Origin: Candidatus Eremiobacteria bacterium
GTDB taxonomy: Bacteria; Vulcanimicrobiota; Vulcanimicrobiia; Vulcanimicrobiales; Vulcanimicrobiaceae
Length of the DNA: 64,000 nt
Assembly: GCA_963737065.1 (NCBI GenBank)
Contig: CAVTRC010000001.1
Coordinates: 1,184,001-1,248,000, forward strand
Reading direction: 5' to 3'
The position numbers and the translations under genes were made by a program. Positions within the stretch are counted from its first letter, which is position 1, and each line of letters begins with the position of its first letter. Shown here in pieces: positions 58,545 through 63,120 of the stretch. The notes under the pieces were generated by a model that did not search any database, was not told where the DNA came from, and was given only the letters and a program-made list of their open reading frames with translations.

Positions 58545-58943
58545 TTGCAATATCTCACTGAAGACGACGTTCTTGCGATTTACAGAGAGGTCATCGGAGA
58601 ACCCGCATTGCGGTATCCCAGTGGCCTTTCTTCTGCAGTAGGACGCCCGCAGCAGTCGGCATTTGGTGAAGACGCATATCCGACGATTCAGCTAAAGGCT
58701 GCAGCCCTTATGCAGTCGCTTGCCGAGAATCAACCTTTCGTTGACGGCAATAAGCGCATTGCATGGATTTGCGGAAAGCTATTCTTGCAGATTCACGGAT
58801 ACACGATGCATGCGACGGATAAGGAGGGAGCAGAACTCTTTTTAGAACGCATCGCAAATGGCATGACAATTGAGGACTTGTCGGAGTGGATTAGTCGCCA
58901 TATTTCCGTGCTTATTACAGACGAAAACGCAGGACTGACTTAA
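58545..58943 (+). CDS. Doc/Fic family toxin with a variant active-site motif
   Basis: LSSAVGRPQQSAFGEDAYP..KAAAL and NQPFVDGNKR motifs. Confidence 0.88.
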   Translation: MQYLTEDDVLAIYREVIGEPALRYPSGLSSAVGRPQQSAFGEDAYPTIQLKAAALMQSLAENQPFVDGNKRIAWICGKLFLQIHGYTMHATDKEGAELFLERIANGMTIEDLSEWISRHISVLITDENAGLT

Positions 58944-59800
58944 AGTCTTTTTTTGTGCCATCCAGTGGTCATATCCGTTCGCTACAATTGAACCATGAAC
59001 GAGCCGACCACCCTCCTCGAAGCCGTTCGCATCTTTGCAGACCCGCAAGTCGCTCATGACTACTTCCTCGGCCTCCGCTTTCCAAACGGTATCGCCTGCC
59101 CTCGGCACGGATGCGGTTCGGCGGACGTAGCAAAGATTTCAAACCGTAACGCGTGGCGCTGCCGCGACTGCAATCGCCAATTTATGGCCAAAGTCGGCAC
59201 GATCTTTGAGGACTTTGAGGACAGTCCTATCGGCTTCGACAAGTGGCCCGCGGCTATGTGGATGTTGTCCTCATGCCGTAACGGTGTATCATCCTGCCAT
59301 CGCCCGGGCGATCGGCGTCTGTCAGAAGACGGCGTGGTTCATGCTGCACCGCTTGCGTCACGCTATGAAAACCAAGACCTTCGAGCGTCTTTCGGGCGAG
59401 ATTGAAGTAGACGAGACGTTCATCGGCCCGCGTGGTCGCTCGATGACTCGTCGCCATGTTCTCCCGCCATCGAAGAAAGGCGGACGCGGTCCGACGTTCG
59501 GAAAGACGACCGTCATGGGATTCCGCGAACGCGGCGGAGATGTTCGCGCGTTTGTCGTTAAAGACAATCGCCGGAACACGCTGCTTCCGAAAGTTTTCGA
59601 GAACGTAATGCCCGGCGCGACCGTCTACACCGATGTGCTCGGCTCTTATCACGGCCTACGCGAAGCGTTCGTTCACCAAGTCATCAATCATGCCGAGTCC
59701 TATGTTGACGGTCGCATTCATACGAACAGCATTGAAAACTTCTGGAGCGTGCTGTTGACGCCGGCTGAAAATTGACCCACTTTGCTATGGGATCGCCGGT

Positions 59801-61616
<1,816 letters not shown>

Positions 61617-61666
61617 CGCGAACTTACGTTCGCGTCAGATCAGGCGGAACGGCTTAGTCAACTCTG

Positions 61667-62740
61667 TTAGGCGGCGACTTCAATACTATTCTGACTATTG
61701 CGCGCAAGTCGGTCTTGCATCGGTTGCAACCGATAAAACACAACCGTTGCCAGCTGCCGTTTGTGAGAACGCATCGCAGCTCGATGCGTCTTGCCCTCAG
61801 CTCGCTTACGCGCATAATAGAGTTGGCCCGGATGATTGCGCGTGCGGTTTTGGACCAACGCAATAACATGGAGTAATCGATTGAGCTGACGATCACCACC
61901 GGTGTTGACACGGACGCTCGCGTTGCGACCGCTCGAACACGGAACGGGCGCCGCCCCGGCGCGCATCGCGAAGCTCGCGGCATTGCGATACATGCAAAGA
62001 TTGCCGGCATGTCCAATGATCCCGGCAGCAACGACAATGGAAACGCCTCGAAGCTCCAGCAATTCGGGCGCAAGGCGCTTAACGAAAGGGCGCAGTTGGC
62101 GTTCCAGCTGATTCACTGCAGCATTGAGCCGGCGGATTTCCGAGATCGCCTCGTCGACCTCATCAGCAAGCGCATCACCGGTATAGCTCTTACCGCGATG
62201 ACCCGTTAGAAGATCTGCTGCATTCTGCAATGCAATTTCGGTGGTCATGTTCGAGGGCAGCGGTCCAATCGCCAGCCGCAATGCGGCATCCCGCAGCCGA
62301 TTTACAGCCTCCGTCCGCTGTCGCACAAGTCGATCGCGGCGATCATAACGTAACCGGACTGCTTCCTGTTCATCCAGACGTTCGCAACGCCGCAAGCGAT
62401 CGGATTCGCGCAGAACTGCTTCGGCAATCGCTCGAGCGTCGAGTGGATCGGATTTTCCTCTTCGGCTTGCGTGTTTGCGGTGACGTTTAGTGAACGAACC
62501 TGGAACCTCGTATACGACGGCGTTGCTTTTCAGCAGAGCATCGGCGAAGCCACGTCCGAACGAACCACTTCCCTCAAGACCCCATTCAACGGTGCCAAAC
62601 GACCGTGCTCTTTCGATCGCAGTCGCATACCCTGCGGCGTTCGTTGCAATGGTGATCTCCGAGAGCGCTTTCCCAACTCCATCAACGAATACGATGGTGT
62701 GAGAATCCTTGTGACAATCGACGCCCGCAACGACGCGCAT
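61667..62740 (-). CDS. IS110 family transposase/recombinase (DEDD)
   Basis: GVDCHK, LEGSG, KSDPLDA, APVPCSSG and GDRQLNRLLH motifs, with an AAGGAG SD. Confidence 0.95.
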   Translation of the reverse strand: MRVVAGVDCHKDSHTIVFVDGVGKALSEITIATNAAGYATAIERARSFGTVEWGLEGSGSFGRGFADALLKSNAVVYEVPGSFTKRHRKHASRRGKSDPLDARAIAEAVLRESDRLRRCERLDEQEAVRLRYDRRDRLVRQRTEAVNRLRDAALRLAIGPLPSNMTTEIALQNAADLLTGHRGKSYTGDALADEVDEAISEIRRLNAAVNQLERQLRPFVKRLAPELLELRGVSIVVAAGIIGHAGNLCMYRNAASFAMRAGAAPVPCSSGRNASVRVNTGGDRQLNRLLHVIALVQNRTRNHPGQLYYARKRAEGKTHRAAMRSHKRQLATVVFYRLQPMQDRLARNSQNSIEVAA

Positions 62741-62759
62741 GCGTTCTCCTTTTATGCGA

Positions 62760-62900
62760 GGTTACCGCAGACGTCGGCGATCCCTTATTGAGCATTTGCA
62801 CTCGGCTTACCAGCCAAAACGCGCTGCGGAAAAGACGCGCCTGCCGGCCATTCCACCCCAAGCCAATCCGACTGTCAATTTTGGAGCCAGAGCAGACGCA
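62760..62900 (-). ncRNA. Candidate IS110 bridge RNA
   Basis: Two stem/internal-loop/hairpin modules whose loops match the target flank and the element ends. TATGAT -10 at 62911-62906. Confidence 0.7.
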
Positions 62901-63120
62901 CCCTAATCATACATATAAGGGGTCAATTTTCAACCGGCGGGGTGGGTCAACTTTACTCCGGCGCTAACACGTGCTAAAGAGAACGCTCGGCGGCACGTAC
63001 ATTTGCCCGCGTCCCAAACACCTCGATGCGTACTTAGACGAACAGATTAAATCTCTCGTTTGTTCCAAAAGCGCGTCGAAGACGTCTTCGACGCCGACTC
63101 TGTAGACTAAGGAGCTCACA

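Follow-up and report, generated by a model that had tools for sequence, protein, structure and literature searches.

The stretch of DNA analysed here, called the window in the following, comprises 64,000 nucleotides (nt) from a Candidatus Eremiobacteria bacterium (assembly GCA_963737065.1, contig CAVTRC010000001.1, positions 1,184,001 to 1,248,000). At 58995-63105 it contains insertion sequences (IS) nested at three levels: a transposase gene of the IS1595 family is interrupted by an IS21-family element, and this element holds an IS110-family element (Table 1). The subject of this report is the non-coding leader of the IS110 element. In an initial annotation of the window, the leader had been regarded as a bridge RNA which is programmed against the terminal repeats of IS21. 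The results suggest that it likely encodes an RNA of the IS621 type, in which module 1 would recognise the target and module 2 the donor.

Judged by its reading frame and its ends, the inner element is an intact insertion sequence of the IS110 group. The transposase matched the Pfam families DEDD_Tnp_IS110 (PF01548; 3.6e-25) and Transposase_20 (PF02371; 2.4e-11), and reached 159.5 bits with the NCBIfam model NF033542, "IS110 family RNA-guided transposase", which has a cut-off of 140. Residues D8, E56, D98, D101 and S269-S270-G271, which we take to be the catalytic DEDD and SSG motifs of this enzyme, were invariant in 10 of 10 aligned sequences, including that of ISEc21. The family is characterised by an N-terminal RuvC-like DEDD domain together with a C-terminal Tnp domain that contains a catalytic Ser. 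DEDD and Ser motifs have been tied to catalysis (PMC11208158). In the IS110 group, the non-coding left end is long and the right end short (PMC11208160, PMC11187229); the IS1111 group has this arrangement reversed, with sub-terminal inverted repeats of 7-17 bp. Here, 181 nt precede the ATG, compared with 16 nt following the stop codon at the right end, and the only inverted repeat around the core is the 4-bp TAAG/CTTA, which recalls the short sub-terminal repeat known for the IS110 group (PMC11208160). The dinucleotide CC occurs at both junctions of the single copy (62921-20; 61652-51), with no long target duplication. The boundaries are uncertain by 1-2 nt, due to a run of C residues (62922-62919) on one side and the CC (61652-61651) on the other; the match to the left flank ends at 62922, the match to the left end begins at 62921, the match to the right end extends over 61656-61650, and IS21 sequence picks up again at 61650.

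The host of the IS110 element was assigned to the IS21 family because of istA (helix-turn-helix and rve domains; NF033546, 291 bits), istB (AAA+; NF038214, 292 bits), TG...CA ends with termini beginning TGT, direct repeats of the type CGCCGG-N-AAAaTTGACCCAC at the left (L1, L2) and right end (R1, R2), and a 5-bp target-site duplication. Ends with L1/L2 and R1/R2 repeats, two complete repeats being required by IstA, are described in a cryo-electron microscopy study of IstA, as are the 5-bp direct repeats produced by insertion of IS21-family elements (PMC10122671). The end architecture and repeat sequences resemble those of ISKpn7, with an IstA identity of 52.5%, and those of ISPst3. The IS110 element has the same orientation as istAB and was found to be inserted in the inner left direct repeat, L2; its location in a terminal direct repeat of IS21, as originally proposed, was thus confirmed. 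Between L2 and the start of istA 36 nt were counted manually, versus 37 nt in ISKpn7, which argues against a large deletion at the insertion site.

Table 1. Coordinates of features at the IS110/IS21/IS1595 locus, numbered from the first nucleotide of the window.
Feature	Position	Strand	Remarks
IS110-family insertion sequence	61651..62921	-	~1,269 bp, CC core counted once
Transposase gene, RNA-guided DEDD/Ser recombinase (by family match)	61667..62740	-	357 aa
Non-coding left end, encodes putative bridge RNA	62741..62921	-	181 nt
Hybrid sigma-70-like promoter, TTGAAA-16 nt-TATGAT	62906..62933	-	10/12 consensus positions
Module 1, putative target-binding loop	62832..62904	-	minimum-free-energy folds; spacing as in IS621
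Left-target guide AAAAUUGAC	62874..62882	-	same sense as 9 nt of L2 adjoining the insertion (62930-62922)
Putative right-target guide GGGGUGG	62853..62859	-	7/7 Watson-Crick with CCACCCC of L1 (62945-39)
Module 2, putative donor-binding loop	62765..62829	-	minimum-free-energy folds
Left-donor guide UAAGCC(G)	62803..62809	-	same sense as right end of the element, 61656-61650
Right-donor guide AUAAGGG	62782..62788	-	antisense to left end CCCTTAT (62921-62915)
IS21-family element, host of IS110	59753..62969	-	Pfam and NCBIfam matches, repeats
istA	61616-60588	-	full length, 342 aa
istB	60595-59801	-	full length, 264 aa
IS21 end repeats	L1 62963-62939; L2 62939 to ~62919; R1 59759-59780; R2 59794-59815		
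IS21 target-site duplication CGTGC	59748..59752	+	5 bp; second copy 62970-62974
IS1595-family transposase gene	58995..63105	+	interrupted by IS21; upstream also broken into two reading frames

All eight strings of the initial annotation and their coordinates were correct, on the minus strand. The 9-mer AAAATTGAC at 62882-74 is identical to the flanking sequence at 62930-22; TAAGCC(G) at 62809-03 repeats the right end of the element (61656-50), and ATAAGGG at 62788-82 is the complement of its left end (62921-15). The left-target guide (LTG) and left-donor guide (LDG) thus have the same sense as their counterparts and the right-donor guide (RDG) is antisense, which are the strand senses required by the IS621 model; in IS621, LDG and RDG act on the donor as the target guides do on the target (PMC11208160). 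The two donor guides, UAAGCC (62809-04) and AUAAGGG (62788-82), overlap on the CC of the circle junction, which would read GACTAAG[CC]CTTATAT (...TAAGCCCTTAT...) and would be matched in this way by the donor loop.

The probability of such matches was estimated with 100,000 dinucleotide shuffles of the leader (62900-62741), which were compared with fixed 18-nt junction windows. Of these, 1,258 contained a 9-nt match to the left flank, 3,810 a 7-nt match to the right end and 3,795 a 7-nt match antisense to the left end, and no shuffle (0/100,000) combined the three in the order seen here. The three-guide observation is real and far above chance. The fourth match is weaker. An antisense match of 7 nt to any part of the L1 region (25 nt) was present in 18,446 of the 100,000 shuffles. 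The string GGGGTGG turned up in 1,171 of 50,000 shuffled leaders when its position was left free, and in 73 of 50,000 when it had to lie within one 16-nt window.

In the unconstrained minimum-free-energy (MFE) fold of this one sequence both stem-closed modules formed, in the order target before donor that had been claimed. The outer stem of module 1 consists of the strands GCGTCTGC (62899-92) and GCAGGCGC (62844-37), with the core GCGUCUGC/GCAGGCGC, plus GGC 62888-86 / GCC 62848-46, and encloses an inner hairpin (62872-62862) with one loop on its 5' side and another on its 3' side. Module 1 can be read as stem (...GGC 62888-86), UCC, AAAAUUGAC (62882-74), A, GUC-GGAUU-GGC (62872-62), UU, GGGGUGG (62859-53), AAUG and stem (GCC 62848-46...). 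The left guide (9 nt) thus begins 3 nt past the stem and is separated by 1 nt from the hairpin of 11 nt; another 2 nt lead to the right guide (7 nt), and 4 nt connect this guide with the stem. The target loop of IS621 comprises, between the two strands of its stem, a 3-nt linker, an LTG of 9 nt, 1 nt, a stem-loop of 12 nt, 2 nt, a right-target guide (RTG) of 4 nt that can be lengthened to 7, two handshake nucleotides and a further 4 nt (PMC11208158). GGGGUGG occupies the position of the extended RTG and ends on the ninth nucleotide past the inner hairpin, as in IS621; its assignment as RTG therefore gains support apart from any complementarity. Module 2 has an outer stem CCGCAG(C)GCGUU / GACGUCUGCGG, with CCGCAG 62829-24 / CTGCGG 62770-65 as closing pairs, and an inner hairpin around 62803-62790. 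From the guides and their placement, the bridge-RNA interpretation of the leader appears well supported.

The register which would best fit the junctions, the donor loop and the consensus of IS21 repeats, with one copy at hand, has the target AAAATTGAC[CC]GTTCC and the donor ...TAAG[CC]CTTAT.... The uninterrupted L2 would then have read ...TTGACCCGTTCC. Three other registers were ranked lower. A register without a shared core, at a site TTGAC/GTTCC, leaves L2 without GAYCCA, a motif present in those other IS21-type repeats that were inspected by eye; one with the core AC and the right end at GTTGAC has no matching left-donor guide; and placing the right end at 61646 would separate the left-donor guide from the core.

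The following course of events could be envisaged. The leader would be transcribed, the RNA would bridge an IS21-type repeat and the circle junction of IS110, and recombination would take place at the CC common to target and donor, the site before insertion being AAAATTGAC[CC]GTTCC. A scan of the region for promoters gave 2 sites versus 0.5 expected. The hybrid promoter in Table 1 has its -35 hexamer in L2 (62933-62928), its -10 hexamer in the left end of IS110, and a predicted start close to the 5' border of module 1. Synthesis of the RNA from the integrated copy may be driven by the -35 which L2 supplies. In IS21-type repeats (T/C)TGAAA is often present just upstream of TTGAC/CTGAC (62933-62928 in the window; L003 and L005 among the sequences compared), so an IS110 element inserted after TTGACCC would often gain a -35-like hexamer with roughly the spacing required relative to its own -10. 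The insertion spared the ...TTGACCC portion of L2; it is thus conceivable that IS21 still transposes and takes the IS110 element along. As a speculation, IS110 would travel with IS21, if the latter is still mobile.

Several results weigh against this interpretation and against the specificity for IS21 repeats. First, the fold of the leader did not exceed those of shuffled sequences in stability (z = +0.29), and 123 of 200 shuffles folded at least as well. The structure by itself therefore proves nothing, and the evidence consists of the guide matches and their placement. One might regard the leader as an ordinary 5' untranslated region with a promoter, in which AAAATTGACA merely holds a -35 sequence TTGACA and the remaining matches arose by chance or as a by-product of the inverted repeat at the ends. 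TTGACA is indeed present at 62878-62873, and the LDG and RDG matches are not fully independent, because both contain UAAG from the TAAG/CTTA repeat. However, the promoter scan yielded no site using this TTGACA, the three matches in order were not reproduced by any shuffle, and strand senses as well as loop positions agree with the IS621 model; this explanation is considered very improbable. A search of Rfam gave no family for the region at E values up to 10, and the proven ISEc21 RNA, which was included as a control (L006), was likewise not matched; the Rfam result is therefore uninformative. MFE folds of the leaders of ISEc21 and of a relative (L002, see below) contained no clean modules, and in the latter the stems ACCCGC/GCGGGT and CAGGCTG/CAGCCTG were noticed by eye only.

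The second group of objections concerns the right side of the target. The initial annotation had paired GGGGTGG with CCACCCC; this complementarity exists, although the matching sequence (62945-39) belongs to L1, 24 nt upstream of the insertion. The actual flank past the right-hand CC is GTTCC, and core and flank together read CCGTTCC (61652-46), with which GGGGUGG forms only 4 Watson-Crick and 3 wobble pairs. The claim that the RNA is programmed against IS21 repeats retains support from the sequence of a single copy, once the right-target match is corrected in this way. 7-mers capable of pairing fully (Watson-Crick or G·U) with CCGTTCC arose within a 16-nt window in 576 of 50,000 shuffles, which lends only modest support to the right guide, and at any place in the leader in 8,523 of 50,000. 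GGAAUGG (62854-48) would pair better with the real flank (6 Watson-Crick and 1 wobble pair), and is wrongly placed in the loop. Directly after the left-target guide stand the bases AG, instead of the CC that pairing with the core would need; for IS621, pairing with both core strands is described as strongly preferred.

Combined, the two target guides spell the 16-mer AAAATTGACCCACCCC. With up to 3 mismatches this sequence was found in the window only in L1 (1 mismatch) and R1 (3 mismatches), the chance expectation being 0.21 hits, and 2 or more hits were obtained in 0 of 100 shuffles. On a Pseudomonas plasmid, the outer repeat at the right end of an IS21 element of the ISPst3 type agrees at 15 of 16 positions (by eye). 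A further point on the negative side is that no site of the IS21 element in the window fits all 16 guide positions. Perhaps the RNA is a genuine bridge RNA and the insertion was off target, a "half-match" event in which only the left half (9/9) and the CC matched, while the truly preferred site would be the 16-mer on other relatives of IS21 or on some repeat unrelated to IS21. The three wobble pairs on the right and the missing 16/16 match point in this direction, and half-match insertions have been reported for IS621 (preprint 10.64898/2026.08.31.748434), which the partly matched occupied site would fit. Moreover, supplementary files 4 and 5 of PMC11208160 place an IS621-type element with the target loop ACCCACCCTAC at an IS21 end of the ISPst3 type, apparently without comment in the text of that paper; IS21 ends can therefore be hit incidentally. 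On the other hand, the best matches to the 16-mer in the window are still outer repeats of IS21, and the ISPst3-type end reaches 15/16, so the class of target would stay the same, since the preferred site is still an IS21-type repeat, and details only would be altered. An off-target insertion is held to be unlikely.

The right guide, GGGGUGG, is made of G and U alone. In L1, CCACCCC follows TTGAC. The sequence of L2 before insertion, as reconstructed, and R1 each deviate from the 16-mer at three positions, which would all be compatible with wobble pairing to such a guide; rG:dT pairs were seen in the structure of IS621 (PMC11208158, PMC11208160). The loop appears to be tuned to TTGACCC-type, IstA-binding repeats rather than to one unique site, because GGGGUGG could also pair by wobble with CCGTTCC (L2) and CCACTTT (R1). 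The occupied site would then be a partial match to a loop tuned to such repeats, complete on the left and in the core and with wobble pairs on the right.

The third group of objections concerns expression and other copies. In the circle form, TTGACT of the right end (61661-56) would be only 13-15 nt from TATGAT (62911-06; manual count). IS621-type elements form a sigma-70 promoter across the junction of right and left end in the circle; here, the hybrid promoter of the integrated copy is the better one. Because of this spacing, expression may depend on integration to a greater extent than it does for IS621 or ISEc21. Searches of the window with blastn and tblastn revealed no second copy of the IS110 element and, likewise, no other copy of IS21. 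A genome scan, for which the single transposase protein was the query, gave two relatives, L001 with 58% and L002 with 49% identity, neither of them in an IS21 end. L002, the identity of which refers to the 158 N-terminal residues, interrupts a transposase gene of the IS3 type in its rve/rve_3 region; L001 is surrounded by fragments of insertion sequences. In a collection of plasmids the best relative was 37.9% identical, and none of the five plasmid relatives examined (33-38% identity) was located in an IS21 end (0/5); one abuts an IS3 transposase gene and one another IS110 element. A plasmid locus (L008) is found close to an IS21 element, but at least about 650 nt outside the IS21 terminus. 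The DNA of the leader matched nothing in the plasmid collection past its first 56 nt, which belong to the IS21 end. The protein family is large: among 8,000 candidate proteins scored, 825 homologues were obtained at E ≤ 0.001; among the matches listed (120), identities were 53-100% and nearly all came from metagenome sources.

The IS110 element might also be an inactive fossil, whose guides record one past event and imply no ongoing relationship with IS21. It is present once in 64 kb, in a pile of nested and partly decayed insertion sequences; yet no damage is seen in its transposase frame, its catalytic residues, either of its ends or any of the four guide segments, and istA and istB are full length. 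This possibility is regarded as quite improbable.

Several side observations were made with the relatives. In L002 (2311-3465 and 3466-5037) the nesting is inverted, since the IS110 relative is cut after about residue 158 by an IS21-family element with IstB matches on the opposite strand. In the leader of L001, about 27 nt before the ATG, an IS256-family element is located at 1589-2973 (Transposase_mut, 4e-116; 27-nt imperfect inverted repeats). L008 (962-3541), from a Streptomyces plasmid, contains two divergent IS110-family transposase genes, 336 nt apart and about 650 nt beyond the IS21 right terminus. A scan for abutting same-sense and antisense exact matches at junctions was dropped as a general detector, since it found the junction in the window and missed that of ISEc21.

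One of the closest known systems is IS621 with its bridge RNA (Durrant et al. 2024, PMC11208160; Hiraizumi et al. 2024, PMC11208158). Common properties are a recombinase with DEDD and Ser motifs, an RNA encoded in the left end with the target loop before the donor loop, LTG and LDG in top-strand sense and RTG and RDG antisense, a nearly identical spacing of the target loop, a core dinucleotide shared by donor and target, and a short inverted repeat around the donor core. There are also differences. The core is CT in IS621 and CC here; the left-target guide of IS621 pairs with the core, which is not the case here; and, unlike in IS621, no separate 5' stem-loop precedes module 1. The hairpin of module 1 has 11 nt and the tail 4 nt, compared with 12 nt and 2+4 (PMC11208158). 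The right-donor guide comprises 7 contiguous nt, versus 9-for-7 in IS621, and the linkers are UCC and UU, whereas both linkers of IS621 have a conserved G (G48, G72). The transposase is longer than the 315-330 aa given for the IS621 branch in the seekRNA paper (PMC11187229). Finally, the target of IS621 is a REP-like sequence, and here it is the end repeat of an IS21 element.

ISEc21, for which the RNA was termed seekRNA (Siddiquee et al. 2024, PMC11187229; L006), is likewise of the IS110 type with an upstream non-coding region, and its transposase has 358 aa as against 357 aa, although the two enzymes are only 29% identical. In both leaders a bottom-strand match precedes a top-strand match, and both right ends carry TTGACT. 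The natural target of ISEc21 is also inside another IS, at conserved DDE codons of IS3-family transposases (PMC11187229), i.e., a coding motif and not a terminal repeat as here. The circle junction of ISEc21 forms a promoter (PMC11187229), for which the spacing is poor in the present element. In addition to the segments assigned by eye, the leader of ISEc21 holds 8 nt perfectly complementary to the circle junction of ISEc21 itself (TC/AGTAAT) at L006 163-170, upstream of the target-matching region, and an 8-nt same-sense copy of the right end of ISEc21 at L006 295-302, downstream. The layout of donor recognition in ISEc21 may differ from that in IS621.

Insertion into mobile elements is known for the IS1111 group, too: IS4321/IS5075 target terminal repeats of the Tn21 family. 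ISKpn4/ISPst6 target attC sites (both cited in the IS110 literature, PMC11208160, PMC11187229). IS4321/IS5075 resemble the present case as IS with a DEDD transposase which insert site-specifically into a terminal repeat of a different mobile element and are transported by it; differences are the RNA downstream of the gene, the long sub-terminal inverted repeats and hosts of the Tn3/Tn21 family instead of IS21. The ACCCACCCTAC element mentioned above is similar in that it belongs to the IS110 group and interrupts the ...TTGACCCACCC... repeat at the end of an IS21-family element. The guide of the ACCCACCCTAC element covers ACCCACC[CT], compared with AAAATTGAC here, and its other listed sites, which end in ACCCACCCTAC, are not IS21, so that its occurrence at IS21 looks incidental. 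The ISPst3-type end holding that element reads ...GGAAAATTGACCCACCCTGCC... (L003, from ~2611). In the open-access literature searched no description of an IS110-family element aimed at IS21 ends was found, and in the supplements of PMC11187229 none of the strings TTGACCC, TGACCCAC and GTGGGTCA was found.

RNA-guided IS110/IS1111 elements which target other mobile elements are already published, and the present one is a further example with unusual details. L002 and the published ISEc21 also sit in or target other insertion sequences (IS3). In a wider, and taken as a whole doubtful, reading, a large and mostly metagenomic clade of the IS110 type would specialise in colonising other IS; this member would have been retargeted from motifs in transposase genes to the IstA-binding repeats of IS21, by a variant target loop in which the left guide stops at the core and the G/U right guide reads CCACCCC, CCACTTT and CCGTTCC by wobble, while the IS21 repeat is kept usable, a -35 sequence is borrowed and the composite is carried by IS21. 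If the bridge RNA should be confirmed, terminal repeats of IS21 would be added to the natural targets of bridge RNAs and seekRNAs (REP, attC, Tn21 inverted repeats, IS3 transposase codons). In addition, the element would offer a natural guide which tolerates several related sites via G·U/G·T wobble, with a target loop functioning without core pairing of the left guide; both properties bear on the design rules of bridge recombinases and on their off-target behaviour. For annotation purposes this is an ordinary locus of nested IS, and the NCBI model already names the protein an RNA-guided transposase.

The outermost gene of the nest consists of a zinc-ribbon open reading frame (ORF) at 58995-59402 and a DDE ORF from 59206 (+ strand), with Pfam matches to Zn_ribbon_IS1595 and DDE_Tnp_IS1595, the latter ending at profile position 125/153. 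Given its ORFs in two frames, the gene is probably frameshifted; beyond IS21 its frame resumes, with ...ENFWSV before and KRTLGGTY... after the interruption. Immediately upstream of this IS1595 remnant, an ORF of the Fic/DOC family is present at 58545-58940 (Pfam, 1.3e-16). A perfect palindrome of 22 nt, GCGTCGAAGACGTCTTCGACGC, was noticed at 63073-63094, where it overlaps the final codons of the IS1595 gene, about 30 nt upstream of a gene for an alpha/beta-hydrolase on the + strand (63121 onward; Abhydrolase_6, 6.1e-20).

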